DNA of 64,000 nucleotides from an uncultured Alphaproteobacteria bacterium (GTDB lineage: Bacteria > Pseudomonadota > Alphaproteobacteria > Rhizobiales > Rhodomicrobiaceae): the NCBI GenBank assembly GCA_963808505.1, contig CAWEFZ010000004.1, forward strand, positions 507,058-571,057, given 5' to 3'. The notes beneath the pieces were generated by a model. It did no database searches. It was not told the DNA's origin and saw only the letters and a program-made list of their open reading frames with translations. Below, piece by piece: positions 2,929 to 58,507 of this stretch. Within the stretch, counting starts at the first letter, position 1. Each line of letters starts with the position of its first letter. The position numbers and the translations under genes are program-made.

Positions 2929-4111
2929 GTCGCCCCGCCGCCGATACAATGAAGCCGCCGCCAAGAACGCGGGCCGAGCCGCCGCCGCTCTCGTAAAAAA
3001 CGCAAGCCTGGCCGCCCGCCACGCCGTATTCGGCCTCATCGAGTTCGACGCACGCCTCGCCAGCCGTCGAAGCCAGCGTGGCGGGCCGCGGCGCCTGCGT
3101 GGAACGCACCTTCACAAAAAGCCGCCGGCGCCCGGCGAGCGCGTCCGCGAGCGTTCCGCCGCCGATCCAGTTCACGTCCTTCAGCCGGATCGACGAGGTG
3201 CGCAACATCTCTCGCGGCCCCACGACCACGCGCCGCCATTGTGTCTCTATACGTAGCACGAAAAGCGGTTCCCCCGTTGCAATGCCCAATCCCTTCCGCT
3301 GCCCAACCGTGAAGCCGACGATGCCTCGATGCGTCCCGAGAACGCGGCCGTCGGCGTGGACGATTTCGCCGGGTTCATTGCTCTCGGGCCGAAGCCCGCG
3401 AATGACCGACGCGTAATCGCCTGTTGGCGCGAAGCATATATCCTGACTGTCGGGCTTGGAAGCTACGGGCAAGCCAAGCTGCGCGGCCAATGCGCGCGTC
3501 TGGGTCTTTTTCATGGCGCCGAGCGGAAAGCGCAGGAAGTCGAGCTGCTCGCGCGTGGTTGCAAACAGGAAATAGCTCTGGTCGCGTTCGGGGTCCGCCG
3601 CCTGATGCATCTCCCACCCGGCCGGGCCGGGGCGGCTGCGCACATAATGGCCGGTGACGAGCGCGGAGGCGCCGAGCTCGCGCGCCATCTTGAGGAGATC
3701 CGAGAACTTCACGGTCTGATTGCAGCGCACGCAAGGCAGCGGCGTCTCGCCCGCCATGTAACTCGCGGCGAAATCGTCGATGACGGACTGGCGGAAGCGA
3801 TCCTCGTAGTTCAGGACGTAATGGGCGATGCCCACATGCTCCGCCACCCGTCTTGCGTCCATGATATCCCGCCCGGCGCAGCAGGCCCCTTTTCGCGCCA
3901 AGGCGGCGCCGTGGTCGTAAAGCTGGAGCGTGACGCCGACGGTTTCGAAGCCCGCGCGGCTAACCAGCGCGGCAGCCAGCGACGAATCGACGCCCCCCGA
4001 CATGGCGACGACGATCCGATGCGCGCTTGGCGGGCCGGCGAGCCCGAAGGACCGGGGATCGAGCGCAAGTCCGTCCCCGCCCTCGGGGATATTTGGCATC
4101 GTTGGCAGCAT
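2915..4111 (-). CDS. mnmA: tRNA 2-thiouridine(34) synthase MnmA
   Basis: 398 aa with the PP-loop [10 protein letters not shown]. Conserved [16 protein letters not shown] and QDICF blocks are present. Confidence 0.95.
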
Positions 4112-4322
4112 TGGGAGACGCTTGTTCCGTGATCTCGGTCTGTTTCCATATGAAAGCGCGATGTCTTTGCGCCTATCCTATACACATCCTTAACGTGTAT
4201 TACTGACGCGTCTCCACTAAAGGTAGAGCACATCGATAACATTTCTAAGATCGGAATTAGGAACCCTTTAAGCGAGCCGGAATAAAGTGCACATCATGGT
4301 CTTGATCGCGTGTGAGAGTACT

Positions 4323-8707: not shown

Positions 8708-10393
8708 CTATTCGGAGGCGCCGGCCTCGATGAAGCGGGCGGCGGCGCTGGCGTTTACGAGACCGTAGCCGAACAACTCATCCCGCCCCTTTGCCGAAAG
8801 GCGGTCCGCCGTCTTCTGCAGGGCCGCGCGAATCTCGTCCGGCGTCGCTTTCGGACGAAGCGCGATCAGATGAGCCGCGATACCGCTGACGGTCGCGGCG
8901 GCAAACGAGGTGCCGGATTCGATGCCGTAAGATTCATGGATTTGAGCCACGATCACATCCACGCCGCGCTCCGAAACCGCGATATAGGGGCCTCTGTTCG
9001 CCGCGCTGTAGAGTCCGCGCCTTGCGTCGGTTGCGGTGACGGCGATGACCTCGGGATAGGCGGCCGGATAGAGCGGCTTCGATGCGGGCCCGGCGTTGCC
9101 CGCCGCGCCAACAAGCACGATCCCTTTCGTGTAGGCCGCCGCGACGGTGCGCTCGACGAGAGCGTCGCTCGGGCCGGCAAAACTGAGATTCACCACGCGG
9201 GCGCCCTGAACGGCCCCCCAATCCAAGGAGAGCACGATTTCCCGGCTTGTCGCGGCGATTTCCTTCTCCTCCTCGGTCACGGTGAAGGCGCGCGCCTCCA
9301 TCAGCGCCGCGCCCGAAGCGAGGCCGTGGACCTTGCCGCGGCCGCCGATGAGGCTCGCCACCGCGGTTCCATGGTTTTCGCCCGCGCACGCATTCGCAGC
9401 CGAGGGCGTCGCGTCGAAATAAGCCTGCACTTCGCCCTGGATTTCGGTGTGATCGCGTTCGATGCAGGTGTCGACGATCGCAACTTTTACGCTGGCGCCG
9501 CCGGATTCGGCGTCGCCCGGCGGCGGCGTAAGCGCGGCTTTCGCTGGCTCCACGGCCGCGCTCCGATCCGTTCCTTGCACAGGAGTGTAAACATAATTCG
9601 GCTGGGCGCTGATGACGCGGTTATCCTGAAGCAGGCGGCCAAGCACGGCGGCCAGGTCTTGATCTCTCACCAGCGTTAATTGCCAGATGCGCGCGTTGAT
9701 CAACGCGACCGCGCCAAGCTCGCGCACCTCGACGCCGTATTGATCGGTAAGCGCTTGTCTAAGCTGAGCGGGGCTGTCATCGGCCACTTCGATCAAGAGC
9801 TCTTTGGCCCGGTGGCGCTTGTTGTTCAACAGCGCGGCGACAGCGGCGGAAGCCTGCGGTCCTTGAAGCCGCGAAAAGCGCGGCGCTATGGGCGGACGCT
9901 CCCCGCCGAAGCCGGCGATGGAAACCGCAGCGGGAGGGACGCCGCCTGCAATAATAACAGGCGGCGGGGGGAGCCTGCGTATCGGCGGCCAGATGCCGAC
10001 AGTACCGCCTGGAGGTTGGGGACGGCCCCTTCCGCCGCCCCATCCACGGCCTGGATGTCTTGACGGATTGTCGGACCCGCCGGACGCGTGCCGCCGGCCA
10101 TCGCCGAAGCCCGCGCGACGCGGGGGAAAGCGAGGCACGCGAGCCTCATGATAGCGGTGGCTCGATTGAGACGACTTTCGCCTGAAGTAGGATCGGGGGA
10201 AATTTTGATGCGCCCCGCGCCCTTCGGCGTGGCGCGCGAAAAAGCCGCCTCCATGACCAAAACGGATCGAACTGAACGCGGCCGTGTTGTCGCGAACTCG
10301 GTCGACCGCAGGGTAGGCGAAAGCCTGAATTGCGCCCATGGAAAAGTAAAACAGAATCGCCGCTGCTGCGCCTGAGGCCCAGTTCGACATCAT
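8708..10393 (-). CDS. S8-family (subtilisin-like) serine peptidase with a long Pro/Gly/Arg-rich N-terminal region
   Basis: Contexts for the catalytic triad are present: VAIVDTCIERDH, ENHGTAVASLIGG and GTSFAAATVSGIAAHL. It has an N-terminal signal/anchor and about 150 aa of low-complexity sequence. Confidence 0.9.
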   Translation of the reverse strand: MMSNWASGAAAAILFYFSMGAIQAFAYPAVDRVRDNTAAFSSIRFGHGGGFFARHAEGRGAHQNFPRSYFRRKSSQSSHRYHEARVPRFPPRRAGFGDGRRHASGGSDNPSRHPGRGWGGGRGRPQPPGGTVGIWPPIRRLPPPPVIIAGGVPPAAVSIAGFGGERPPIAPRFSRLQGPQASAAVAALLNNKRHRAKELLIEVADDSPAQLRQALTDQYGVEVRELGAVALINARIWQLTLVRDQDLAAVLGRLLQDNRVISAQPNYVYTPVQGTDRSAAVEPAKAALTPPPGDAESGGASVKVAIVDTCIERDHTEIQGEVQAYFDATPSAANACAGENHGTAVASLIGGRGKVHGLASGAALMEARAFTVTEEEKEIAATSREIVLSLDWGAVQGARVVNLSFAGPSDALVERTVAAAYTKGIVLVGAAGNAGPASKPLYPAAYPEVIAVTATDARRGLYSAANRGPYIAVSERGVDVIVAQIHESYGIESGTSFAAATVSGIAAHLIALRPKATPDEIRAALQKTADRLSAKGRDELFGYGLVNASAAARFIEAGASE

Positions 10394-55246: not shown

Positions 55247-55960
55247 ATGCGCGAACTTGTCCTCGACACCGAGACGACCGGGCTCGACCCGAAGGACAAT
55301 CACCGCATCATCGAGCTGGCTTGCGTCGAACTCATCAATTTCATCCCGACCGGCGCCACGTGGCATTGGTATTTCAATCCCGAGCGCGACGTGCCGAAAT
55401 CCGCGACCGAGATCCACGGCCTGACGGGCGCCTTTCTGGCCGACAAGCCGCTGTTCGGTTCGATCGCGGCGGACATCGTCGCGGCGCTGGGCGACGCGCG
55501 GCTCATCATCCATAACGCCGCCTTCAACGTCGGCTTCCTCAACGCCGAATTCGGCCGGCTCGGGCTTCCGCCGCTCAGCATGGAGCGCGTCACCGATACG
55601 CTGGCGCTCGCCCGCCGCAAGCACCCCGGCAGCCCCAACAATCTCGACGCGCTGTGCCGCCGCTACGGCATCGACAATTCGAAGCGCGAGAAGCACGGCG
55701 CGCTGCTCGACAGCGAACTCTTGGCGGATGTGTATCTGCGGCTCGTCGGCGCGGAGCAGGCCGGCCTCAACCTGATGACGCACTCGGCGTCCGAACAGGC
55801 GGAGGCGGCCGAAGCGGCGGTGCAGGTGCGGCTGAAGCCCTTGCCGCCGCGCATCACGGCGGAGGAGGAAGCCGCGCACGCCGCTTTCGTCGCGACGCTC
55901 GGCCCGAAGGCGATCTGGGCGCGCTATGCCGCGCCCGCGCCGGAGCAGTCCGCGGCTTAG
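55247..55960 (+). CDS. dnaQ: DNA polymerase III epsilon subunit (3'-5' exonuclease)
   Basis: ExoI LDTETTGL, ExoII IIHNAAFNVGFL and ExoIII HGALLDSELLADVY. Confidence 0.95.
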   Translation: MRELVLDTETTGLDPKDNHRIIELACVELINFIPTGATWHWYFNPERDVPKSATEIHGLTGAFLADKPLFGSIAADIVAALGDARLIIHNAAFNVGFLNAEFGRLGLPPLSMERVTDTLALARRKHPGSPNNLDALCRRYGIDNSKREKHGALLDSELLADVYLRLVGAEQAGLNLMTHSASEQAEAAEAAVQVRLKPLPPRITAEEEAAHAAFVATLGPKAIWARYAAPAPEQSAA

Positions 55961-56094
55961 TCATCCCGGCCAAGCGAAGCGCAGAGCCGGGATCTGCCTG
56001 CGATAACGTCCCGTGTCTGCGCAGTCCGCGCCTTGCCGCCACAACAAGCCGAGCGCCACTTTGTGTTCCCGGTCACGACTGTTATAGTGCGTCT

Positions 56095-56397
56095 ATGATC
56101 AAAAAGCGCGAAATGGTCGACGAGAAAGTGACCAAGGTTGTCAACGCGGTGCTCAAGGAACGCATGGAGCGGTTCGGCTTCCAGCGGGCGACGGTGCTCG
56201 TGGGCCAAGATCACGATGGGGACCCGGTGCTGCTGATCGATGCCGACTACGCATACTCAAGCGACCCCATAGACGTTCGCGCAACGGTTGGCCTTGTCAG
56301 CGCGCTACGTGACGCCCTTGAGGACATCGGTGAGTTTCGCTTCCCGCACGTCCGGCACCATTTCGATGAACGGCAGCGCACGGCGAAATCGGCGTGA
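56095..56397 (+). CDS. Hypothetical 100-aa protein, upstream partner of an overlapping two-gene module
   Basis: This is the internal ATG of ORF 55654-56397. The stop overlaps the next start (ATGA). VLVGQDHDGDPVLLIDADY is only faintly reminiscent of minimal nucleotidyltransferase cores. Confidence 0.55.
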   Translation: MIKKREMVDEKVTKVVNAVLKERMERFGFQRATVLVGQDHDGDPVLLIDADYAYSSDPIDVRATVGLVSALRDALEDIGEFRFPHVRHHFDERQRTAKSA

Positions 56398-56861
56398 AGG
56401 CGCCGGAGCTGATCGCCCAGGCGAACAGGTTGGCGAAGGCTACTGGTCGCAAGCCTCTCCAAGTCGACCTCAAGCGTGCGGTTAGCGCAGCATACTACGC
56501 CATGTTCCACGCGATGGCGAAAGAGTGTGCGGACACGATAGCGGGCACCGGGCGACATCGCAGCGATAAGGCGTGGGTTCAGGTCTATCGAGCCTTAGAG
56601 CACGGCGTCGCGAAAAACGCCTGTAAACAAGTTAGGAACAAGGGTTTTCCACCTCAGATTGTCAGTTTTGCCGACACGTTCGTTGCTCTGCAAGAAGAGC
56701 GGCACTCCGCGGACTACGACCCGCAATCTTGTTATGCGCGGGCAACCGTAACCACGCTAGTTGCGAATGCGGCTCAGGCGATAGCCGATTTGGCGCAAGC
56801 CCCGAGGTTCGATAGACGTGCGTTTGTGGCGCTGGTGCTGCTCAAGGATCAAAAACGATAG
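56394..56861 (+). CDS. All-alpha 155-aa protein with HEPN-like features
   Basis: AQANRLAKA...LKRAVSAAYYAMFHAMAKECA and LQEERHSADYD resemble HEPN-domain helices and the R..(a)DY motif. The start is coupled to the upstream ORF. Confidence 0.55.
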   Translation: MKAPELIAQANRLAKATGRKPLQVDLKRAVSAAYYAMFHAMAKECADTIAGTGRHRSDKAWVQVYRALEHGVAKNACKQVRNKGFPPQIVSFADTFVALQEERHSADYDPQSCYARATVTTLVANAAQAIADLAQAPRFDRRAFVALVLLKDQKR

Positions 56862-56949
56862 CCCCTCTTGGCGTTCGGGTAGGGCTGCCCTTCCTCAAGA
56901 ATCAGCATCGGCAACTCGTAGAGCCCGCGGAGCCTGATGCGGCGGTTCA

Positions 56950-57082
56950 CGCGCAGCTCAAACCCTTGCTGCCGCGCATCACGGCGGATGAGGAAGCGCG
57001 CACGCCGCGTCGCTCGGCCCGAGGGCGATCTGGGGGCGCTATGCGCATGCGCCGGAACAGTCTGTCGCTTAACGCTGAAAAC
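56950..57082 (+). pseudogene. Decayed duplicate of the dnaQ 3' end
   Basis: Aligns with 55817-55960 at roughly 80% identity by eye, with three short gaps, including the region around the stop. Confidence 0.8.
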
Positions 57083-57111
57083 GGAATATTATCACTTTGA
57101 CAAAGTAGTTG

Positions 57112-57732
57112 CTAAATGTTTACCGCTAATGCGTCAGCCACAAAAACTTGTACCTTTCCGCCATCACTCATGTTCCTAAGCATGCATCCAAATAGCCTAT
57201 CAGAATTTATCGCTATTATATGGAAAGAAAGTAGATCATTAATTTTCTGCGTCCATTCTATTATTTCTGGTACACTTATATTCAGATCGAGTGCGCTGTC
57301 AGCATTCAAGAGACCTTTAAGACTGCCTCTGTGAAGGTGCCTATGGCATTTCCCGTACAGCAAGATCAGCTCTTCCTTTGGAAGAGGCGACTTGTCAAAA
57401 ATTATGTCGATCCTAAATGAATTTCCAACAGTTTGGGTTGCTGCCATCGGATAGAAATGCGGTCGTAGCTTACTTAATTCATTCAGGATATCTTGCGCAG
57501 CAGTTGTTTTTCCTATTTTATGCGGCTGAACAAGAGTAATGTCGCCGTGCGCAACCAAGCATGCAATCGCGACCAGTTCGCATAGCATTCGCAGTTGCAA
57601 GTAGCAGAATTCTCTGACGATCGGAGTGGGAAGCCCCGTTCTTCCATTCGCCGCATTATCGATGCATGTTACGCGGAGTTTCACCTCTTCCATCAAATCC
57701 GCGTAGAGTTGAATCTGCTTATTTTGATCCAT
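57112..57732 (-). CDS. AT-rich orphan hypothetical protein (~206 aa)
   Basis: Lies in ORF 57112-57840, with the start set at MDQNKQ. Its GC content is markedly lower than the flanks. No family was recognised. Confidence 0.55.
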   Translation of the reverse strand: MDQNKQIQLYADLMEEVKLRVTCIDNAANGRTGLPTPIVREFCYLQLRMLCELVAIACLVAHGDITLVQPHKIGKTTAAQDILNELSKLRPHFYPMAATQTVGNSFRIDIIFDKSPLPKEELILLYGKCHRHLHRGSLKGLLNADSALDLNISVPEIIEWTQKINDLLSFHIIAINSDRLFGCMLRNMSDGGKVQVFVADALAVNI

Positions 57733-57968
57733 TCGAAAAATCTCTGCGATGAGCAAGGCCAAGATTGAGCAGCCTAAGTCTGAACTTTGGCACATCCCGG
57801 CAGTTCTTTTTGTAAGTCGATTCGACGCCCCGAGTCCCATTCGGCTACTGTTCTTTTGGGCGCTTCGTTAGTCTGCCGATAGGTAAGACGCTTCCCTTAC
57901 GGGCGGCTTCTTGATTATGGAAAATTGGGTTTGAGAAGTCTGATCTGATGCTATTCCTTCATGATACC

Positions 57969-58289
57969 CTAGCGCCGCTTCTTCTGCGGCGCCGGAAGCT
58001 CGGCCGCCGTCAGCAGAATGAGCCGGGACAGCCACTCCGCGTCATCCCAGCGCTCCGCCGCGATCAGGAAATGCGGCTTGGCGTTTGGGTAGGGCTGCCC
58101 TTCCTCGCAATCGCCGATGAAGGCGCGCCCGGCGGCGGTTGGCTTCACGTAAAGCGCGTCATCGCAGACGAGCGCCGCCATCTTGCCGCCGCAGTAAATG
58201 CCGTACTCGCCGAACATCTTTCGAGCCGATGCCTGCGCCGGCTGGAGTTGCTCGACGAGATAGTCGACGATGCTTTGCCGTGACGCCAA
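57969..58289 (-). CDS. TfoX N-terminal-domain protein
   Basis: IVDYLVEQL...ARKMFGEYGIYCGGKMAALVCDDALYVK shows the TfoX_N pattern. Confidence 0.8.
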   Translation of the reverse strand: MASRQSIVDYLVEQLQPAQASARKMFGEYGIYCGGKMAALVCDDALYVKPTAAGRAFIGDCEEGQPYPNAKPHFLIAAERWDDAEWLSRLILLTAAELPAPQKKRR

Positions 58290-58311
58290 CGCAAGTCTCC
58301 CATCCGGAAAG

Positions 58312-58415
58312 AAGCGAAGCTAAGCAGAGTTTCCCGATGAAGCCAACGGATGGTTTGCTTGTCATGTGTGGATGGCCTTCGTTCGTCGTCCCGGAAAGGC
58401 GAAGCCTTATCCGGG
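58312..58415 (-). repeat. Composite REP-like element, family A (partial)
   Basis: Its reverse complement shares TCCCGGATAAGGCTTCGCCTTTCCGGGACGA...CATCCGTTGGCTTCATCGGGAAACTCTGCTTAGC with 19018-19156. Confidence 0.7.
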
Positions 58416-58507
58416 ACGGCGATGCATTGGGCAAATCGACGGAGTTTGCGTAGCGTGGAAAAGGCCGCACAGCATACGCCGCGCGCGGTCCCTCGCCCTC
58501 CCATGCG

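Follow-up and report, generated by a model that had tools for sequence, protein, structure and literature searches.

Which kind of system is encoded by two small overlapping genes in an uncultured member of the Alphaproteobacteria, and what does its HEPN-like protein do there? The genes are two open reading frames (ORFs), ORF1 and ORF2, at positions 56095 to 56861 of a 64,000-nucleotide (nt) stretch of contig CAWEFZ010000004.1; this whole stretch is referred to as the window. A reading made from the sequence alone had proposed a candidate toxin-antitoxin or defense pair, with a HEPN-like protein downstream of a possible, very degenerate minimal nucleotidyltransferase (MNT), as in type VII toxin-antitoxin systems. 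We find that ORF2 is indeed a HEPN-fold protein, that ORF1 is not an MNT, and that the two families are kept together across distant genomes. The pair is probably a stand-alone, horizontally mobile, type II-like toxin-antitoxin module, in which ORF1 would neutralize a HEPN RNase by binding to it.

A HEPN-fold protein and its unannotated partner

Both ORFs lie on the plus strand where the sequence-only reading had placed them, and the peptides that it quoted are all present: SAAYYAMFHAMAKE corresponds to ORF2 residues 31 to 44, EERHSADYD to ORF2 residues 101 to 109, and VLVGQDHDGDPVLLIDADY to ORF1 residues 34 to 52. The 4-nt overlap, given earlier as ATGA, reads GTGA, and the start codon of ORF2 is therefore GTG; ORF1 starts with ATG. 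Homologues are conserved for both, with 617 found for ORF2 by a word-index search and 954 clusters (50% identity) found for the ORF1 family at an E value of ≤1e-3 by an exhaustive HMMER search of 1.84 billion representatives. ORF1 and ORF2 are therefore genes and not chance ORFs.

Direct scans of ORF2 alone against Pfam, NCBIfam, and PADLOC gave no significant match. Some ORF2 homologues are labeled as UPF0332 family by the Joint Genome Institute (JGI), and one carries a precomputed match to PF05168. The family profile (family alignment of 58 sequences) matches PDB entry 2hsb, "UPF0332 protein AF0298," with an E value of 1.8e-4, covering the S-x-AYYAxFHA helix and, weakly, R-x3-D-Y; 9xbd, a "HEPN domain-containing protein," is matched weakly. 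The Pfam HEPN family (PF05168) is matched by 30 of the 58 family members at E values up to 1, the best being 1e-5. The AlphaFold2 model of ORF2 has a mean predicted local distance difference test (pLDDT) score of 93 and is all-helical, with seven helices (residues 3 to 14, 23 to 50, 58 to 67, 70 to 79, 87 to 108, 116 to 135, and 138 to 149). When the model is searched against the PDB with Foldseek, the top match is again 2hsb (probability 1.0, E = 7.8e-3, approximately 16% identity), followed by the MNT-HEPN toxins 8yuf, 8xeh, 5yep, 7bxo, and 7ae6 and then by 2q00, 1ufb, and sacsin HEPN. The earlier description of the downstream protein as all-alpha and HEPN-like is thus borne out, and ORF2 can be assigned to the AF0298/UPF0332-like HEPN-T type of HEPN-fold proteins.

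The residues that are invariant among the 58 sequences are S31, Y34, A46, W61, R66, H70, F96, R103, A106, D107, Y108, P110, and F144. The helix-2 motif of ORF2 is common to AF0298, where it reads STAYYAMFHA. When the conserved residues are mapped on the HEPN architecture of Anantharaman et al. (2013; PMC3710099), D47 falls within helix 2. At the end of helix 3, R103-H-x-A-D107-Y108 is the counterpart of the Rx4-6H motif, and H70, which sits between the model helices 23 to 50 and 87 to 108, is a candidate alternative catalytic histidine. According to the same survey (PMC3710099), AF0298-like HEPN-T proteins and AbiV keep the arginine, have an aspartate for the histidine, and hold an alternative conserved histidine in an insert, a variant predicted to be an RNase still. 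R103, D107, and H70 of ORF2 are all invariant in the 58 sequences, and H70 would be equivalent to the insert histidine of AF0298-like proteins by its position, as opposed to by superposition.

ORF2 shares with AF0298-like HEPN-T proteins the helical fold, the S-x-AYYAxFHA motif of helix 2, R-x3-D-Y for Rx4-6H, and the insert histidine, as well as small size and the place of downstream gene in a two-gene operon. However, the similarity is remote (approximately 16% identity in the fold alignment, with ORF2 lying below Pfam detection), and ORF2 has a longer two-helix insert, with the invariant W61, R66, and H70, and an extra RH dipeptide. The usual partners of AF0298-like HEPN-T proteins (UPF0332; PF05168; 2hsb) are MNTs, whereas the partner of ORF2 is not. 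The COG2250 HEPN subfamily, the MNT-partnered group taken here as the closest relatives, is mostly thermophilic or archaeal (Makarova et al. 2009; PMC2701414), whereas the ORF2 family is mesophilic and largely proteobacterial or from the Chloroflexota.

ORF1 likewise gave no significant match in direct scans against Pfam, NCBIfam, and PADLOC, and for both proteins PHROGs returned only families of unknown function. A single-sequence search with ORF1 found 11 relatives only. The ORFs upstream of ORF2 relatives in other genomes align clearly with ORF1, and the ORF1 family profile comprises 56 proteins. These 56 relatives had no consistent match in Pfam at an E value of ≤1, and the profile found among PDB sequences only a chance match to cystatin (E = 0.89). 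The profile has zero invariant or nearly invariant columns, unlike what an enzyme should show. Nearly all ORF1-family clusters are stand-alone proteins of 95 to 125 amino acids (aa), with a few tandem dyads and rare fusions. Tandem dyads of the domain within single proteins were seen among P0222, P0223, P0230, P0246, P0348, and P0329; in P0329, the domain is fused to an unrelated C-terminal region of approximately 270 aa, and in P0285, ORF1 is apparently joined by a frameshift to the beginning of the HEPN gene.

In the AlphaFold2 model of ORF1 (pLDDT 86), a helix (10 to 27) is followed by a strand (29 to 38), the DxDGD loop, a strand (44 to 52), a helix (61 to 77), and a strand (83 to 89). The matches of this model in the PDB are weak and generic, consisting of CDF-transporter C-terminal domains, ANL-enzyme C-terminal domains, and the PrgK ring-building motif, with a best E value of 1.8e-3; matches in BFVD were uninformative. 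The suggestion that the upstream protein is a degenerate MNT does not withstand this comparison. Its alpha-beta-beta-alpha-beta topology is without the strand-GS-helix-DxD core; the hG[GS]-x9-13-DhD motif is missing, with no G[GS] turn followed by a helix and with DxDGD placed in a beta-hairpin loop; nucleotidyltransferases account for 0 of the top 50 PDB fold matches; and none of the 56 family members matches a nucleotidyltransferase family in Pfam at an E value of ≤1. Together with the lack of invariant residues, these results establish that ORF1 is not an MNT. The fallback of the sequence-only reading, that the pairing would then be novel, therefore applies: the pairing is conserved in all 80 loci described below and is undescribed in the libraries searched.

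Pairing and spread of the two families

A scan of one genome per species, covering 185,579 species, yielded at least 577 loci with an ORF2 relative, of which 80 were fetched for counting co-occurrence. Surveying homologues for co-occurrence had been put forward along with the sequence-only reading, and the pair proved to be kept throughout: an ORF1-family gene adjoins the HEPN gene on the same strand in 80 of 80 loci, upstream in 76 and downstream in 4. Look-ups starting from ORF1 relatives found a HEPN gene immediately downstream in three of three cases. In 60 of 74 loci, with starts chosen heuristically, the two reading frames overlap or directly adjoin each other (gap of ≤0); overlaps of 14 nt (25 loci) and of 4 nt (14 loci) are the most frequent.

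The two families also diverge together. Their distance matrices correlate with a Mantel r of 0.70, a value reached in 0 of 2,000 permutations, while the mean pairwise identity is 24% for ORF1 versus 49% for ORF2, with ORF1 evolving approximately twice as fast. Their charges are complementary, with a median isoelectric point (pI) of 5.0 in the ORF1 family versus 10.1 in the HEPN family (range, 9.4 to 11.3). No recurrent third gene was seen among the flanking ORFs. Variations on the arrangement include two tandem copies of the entire pair or an additional ORF1 copy (L033, L042, and L066) and reversed gene order, with the HEPN gene first (L052, L065, L073, and L075). On a metagenome contig of 7,998,203 bp (L091), a gene of the PaREP1 family, another HEPN-T family, directly follows the pair at 3804 to 4175.

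The pair is patchily distributed across phyla, occurring in Alphaproteobacteria, Gammaproteobacteria, Dehalococcoidia, Acidobacteriota, Latescibacterota, Binatia, and one cyanobacterium, and several genomes hold two loci or tandem pairs. Each gene also has matches on approximately 30 to 35 plasmids, most of them conjugative plasmids of Rhizobium; the two genes are adjacent in those records that were inspected, and both are labeled "hypothetical protein" in the listed plasmid records. On pRltCC275eB, the one plasmid inspected for context, the pair, with the protein accessions WP_245304490.1 and WP_033182425.1, lies 2.3 kb from repABC and beside a ParB-family gene. Broken copies are skewed toward one partner: the HEPN gene is broken with ORF1 intact in L049, L080, L084, and L081, and the reverse, a truncated ORF1 with an intact HEPN gene, is found in L010 only. 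This skew is suggestive of HEPN as the toxic partner.

Weighing a type II-like module against its rivals

All comparative hallmarks of a toxin-antitoxin system are present. Two small, adjacent, co-oriented genes are kept as a pair with tight or overlapping spacing, and their distribution is patchy and mobile, extending over many phyla, plasmids, a strain-variable hotspot, and multicopy genomes. Because of these hallmarks, and because the enzyme-like HEPN protein is conserved and basic whereas ORF1 evolves fast, is acidic, and is translated first, we favor a type II-like module. ORF2 would be the toxin, a basic HEPN-fold RNase of the AF0298-like HEPN-T clade, and ORF1, which is small, acidic, fast-evolving, and without enzyme-like invariant residues, would be the antitoxin. 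ORF1 would be translated first, with translation of ORF2 coupled to it through the GTGA overlap, and would bind to the HEPN protein and cover its basic RNA-binding face, possibly by means of the DxDGD loop.

HEPN RNase toxins with small, nonenzymatic protein antitoxins in place of MNTs are known from RnlA-RnlB and LsoA-LsoB. In these systems and in AbiV, HEPN toxins are neutralized by, or interact with, small unrelated proteins, as is proposed for the present pair. However, none of them has a detectable sequence relationship to ORF1 or ORF2, and RnlA and LsoA are much larger, multidomain proteins whose toxin gene comes first, whereas the partner comes first here. AbiV has an alternative-histidine motif variant, as ORF2 does (PMC3710099). 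The type VII system HepT/MntA (SO_3166/SO_3165) is also similar in its small upstream partner, downstream HEPN protein, overlapping genes, and mobile two-gene cassette, and the HEPN toxin structures 5yep, 7bxo, 8xeh, and 7ae6 are among the fold matches of ORF2. It differs in that HepT belongs to the DUF86 (HEPN-M) clade with a canonical Rx4HxY motif and in that its antitoxin, MntA, AMPylates the toxin, whereas ORF1 is not a nucleotidyltransferase and has no catalytic signature.

Several observations weigh against the type II-like interpretation. The canonical Rx4-6H motif is absent from ORF2, as the sequence-only reading had cautioned: R103 is invariant, the residues at +4 and +5 are D107 and Y108, and no histidine occurs at +5 to +7. 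To our knowledge, the AF0298-type alternative active site is itself a prediction only. No helix-turn-helix (HTH), ribbon-helix-helix (RHH), or AbrB domain was matched in ORF1 or its 56 relatives, and the fold is not that of a classical antitoxin. Because ORF1 is without a recognizable DNA-binding domain, the autoregulation expected of type II systems is unexplained, although such a domain is common in the antitoxins of type II modules and not obligatory. The fold-search E values are all weak (best, 7.8e-3 for ORF2 and 1.8e-3 for ORF1), with the ORF2 list dominated by HEPN proteins. The hidden Markov model used to count co-occurrence was partly built from the same loci, and eight loci not used in building it (L010, L012, L023, L052, L065, and L073 to L075) still scored. 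The 4-to-1 asymmetry among pseudogenes is too small for significance.

A role in abortive infection or phage defense, in which ORF1 would be a sensor or an inhibitor that is displaced or degraded on infection, freeing the HEPN RNase, is unlikely, although it is the most probable of the alternatives. It largely overlaps the toxin-antitoxin reading and differs from it in biological role only. HEPN domains are common among abortive infection (Abi) effectors, among which AbiV has the same alternative-histidine variant (PMC3710099); the module lies in a strain-variable hotspot beside other foreign cargo, which is an AT-rich gene in the window and a PIN-like pair in the sister contig L081; and ORF2 weakly matches the phage family phrog_5176 (E = 2e-5). 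However, PADLOC matches neither protein, and only 3 of 2.9 million viral contigs carry the pair, with both genes on all 3. The neighborhood also gives little indication of defense. Among 135 flanking ORFs, Pfam matches are mostly metabolic or housekeeping, and PADLOC matches are single and scattered; the defense-island enrichment that was to be looked for in the neighborhood of homologues was not seen in this coarse scan of immediate neighbors, for which ORFs were chosen heuristically. The proximity to repABC in pRltCC275eB, a single plasmid, suits plasmid maintenance at least equally. A defense role is thus compatible with the toxin-antitoxin reading, without specific support.

It is quite unlikely that the pair is instead a nontoxic regulatory or RNA-binding couple, with ORF2 as a catalytically dead HEPN protein that binds RNA or nucleotides and ORF1 as its cofactor. 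The missing Rx4-6H motif would fit such a couple, as would the many copies that stand amid housekeeping genes, and HEPN domains without the motif can be noncatalytic RNA binders, for example, MtlR (PMC3710099). However, the invariant R, H, D, and Y cluster at HEPN active-site positions, and the AF0298-type variant is predicted to be active. The patchy spread across phyla, multiple copies, pseudogenes, plasmids, and strain-level presence and absence are the signature of a selfish or mobile module and do not suit a housekeeping role, and this mobility makes a nontoxic couple less likely.

A further variant that we regard as improbable keeps the HEPN RNase toxin but makes ORF1 a signal-responsive switch, whose conserved acidic DxDGD hairpin would release the toxin upon binding a metal ion or a trigger from a phage or plasmid. 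Its basis is the resemblance of the modeled ORF1 fold to the metal-binding CDF-transporter C-terminal domains. If true, the pair would be a new sensor-effector system for defense or plasmid competition, and it would give a first experimental handle on the HEPN active site that draws its histidine from an insert.

Finally, a type VII MNT-HEPN system, in which ORF1 would be a degenerate MNT that AMPylates the HEPN tyrosine (Y108), accords with the gene order and overlap, with the invariant tyrosine beside the R motif, and with one weak, insignificant BFVD match to a Pol-beta nucleotidyltransferase domain protein (rank 26, E = 0.054), but it is essentially excluded because the MNT is lacking, given the fold, the 0 of 50 PDB and 0 of 56 Pfam matches, and the absence of any invariant or nearly invariant column described above.

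Surroundings and significance of the module

The features of the module are collected in Table 1, which includes a possible promoter that comes from our own reading of the sequence.

Table 1. Features of the two-gene module, with positions in the window
Feature	Positions	Strand	Description
Possible promoter	56061..56088	+	TTGTGT, 16-nt spacer, TATAGT; own reading of the sequence, inference only
ORF1	56095..56397	+	100 aa, pI 6.1 (weakly acidic); unannotated small alpha-beta-beta-alpha-beta family; proposed antitoxin; AlphaFold2 pLDDT 86
D39-H-D-G-D43 acidic beta-hairpin loop (ORF1)	56209..56223	+	Best-conserved motif of the family, consensus DxDGD
GTGA overlap	56394..56397	+	ORF2 GTG start on ORF1 TGA stop; probable translational coupling
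ORF2	56394..56861	+	155 aa, pI 9.8 (basic); HEPN fold, AF0298/UPF0332-like HEPN-T type; proposed RNase toxin
Helix-2 motif S31-AAYYAMFH39-AMAKE (ORF2)	56484..56525	+	S31 and Y34 invariant; Y35 in 57/58, F38 in 56/58, H39 in 48/58
Helix 2-3 insert W61-VQVYRALEH70-G (ORF2)	56574..56606	+	W61, R66, and H70 invariant
R103-H-S-A-D107-Y108-D-P110, end of helix 3 (ORF2)	56700..56723	+	R, A, D, Y, and P invariant; H104 in 56/58

The possible promoter ends 6 nt upstream of the ATG of ORF1, so the mRNA would be leaderless or nearly so, and there is no Shine-Dalgarno-like sequence ahead of this ATG. A consensus scan called neither a promoter upstream of ORF1 nor a terminator; the TTGTGT promoter went uncalled because its −35 hexamer fits at only 3 of 6 positions. 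An Rfam scan of 55500 to 58500 returned nothing credible, and the predicted folding of the 5′ intergenic region is not more stable than that of shuffled sequence (z = −0.78). The public runs containing this sequence are soil and moss metagenome DNA only, with no RNA sequencing (RNA-seq) run among them.

The module is flanked on one side by dnaQ (55247 to 55960) and on the other, at 56917 to 57070, by a diverged remnant of the 3′ end of that gene. This remnant copies the last approximately 150 nt of dnaQ (55792 to 55958), stop codon included, and is approximately 79 to 90% identical to it, with two small deletions. An inserted segment at 55817 to 57082, as proposed earlier, is supported to the extent that the module is located between these two copies. 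Just 3′ of ORF2, at 56867 to 56896, there is a 30-nt, 97%-identical copy of 58077 to 58106, which is internal to a gene with a TfoX_N domain on the minus strand (57969 to 58289). The region from 56867 to 57070 resembles a junction left either by a partial tandem duplication or by recombination between two alternative cargo cassettes at a dnaQ-tfoX/secB hotspot.

The sister contig L081 is 99.3% identical to the window until position 56633 and then diverges within ORF2 at approximately codon 80, leaving a truncated, 100-aa product without helix 3. The hotspot cargo of L081 (6300 to 8678) includes a PIN-like gene of 175 aa and, overlapping it on the opposite strand, a gene of 291 aa; together, the two may form another two-gene module. 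In the window, a 242-aa ORF on the minus strand (57112 to 57840) has a GC content of 41 to 50% versus 60 to 70% around it and is therefore probably a recent acquisition. It had no match in Pfam, PADLOC, or the PDB and an insignificant one in NCBIfam, far below the cutoff; the sole informative match is phrog_13799, of unknown function (E = 1e-15). Right after the dnaQ stop codon, at 55960 to 55995, is a GC-rich, hairpin-forming element, GTCATCCCGGCC...GCCGGGATC, which looks like a repetitive extragenic palindromic (REP)-type repeat. An inverted, 97%-identical copy lies at 9409 to 9438 of L081, near a tfoX-like gene.

Neither HEPN toxins nor the swapping of partners among toxin-antitoxin systems is new; what is new is the partner family and its conserved pairing, which are undescribed in the libraries and literature that we searched. 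The rlegTA system of Rhizobium leguminosarum, which we considered as a possible identity, is a DUF1814/COG5340 system and unrelated. No paper was found in the literature that links UPF0332 with HEPN in a search combining the two. The NetFlax study (PMC10440598), which states that HEPN-MNT was missed by its method, has no mention of such a pair. Table 1 of Anantharaman et al. (2013; PMC3710099) lists an "HEPN-T (Cpin_6617)" family in which the protein is fused to two ferredoxin domains arranged as a dyad; this fusion could hint at the same association.

If confirmed, the pair would represent a widespread toxin-antitoxin family whose HEPN-T toxin is under the control of an undescribed small-protein family and not of a nucleotidyltransferase. 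It would introduce no new principle, being a new partner family inside a known logic, and it would extend toxin-antitoxin partner swapping to the HEPN-T clade. Because culturable Rhizobium leguminosarum has conjugative repABC plasmids that carry the pair, the pair would also offer a tractable model for the predicted alternative HEPN active site. In these hosts, such a module could partly explain the stability of symbiosis-relevant Rhizobium plasmids.

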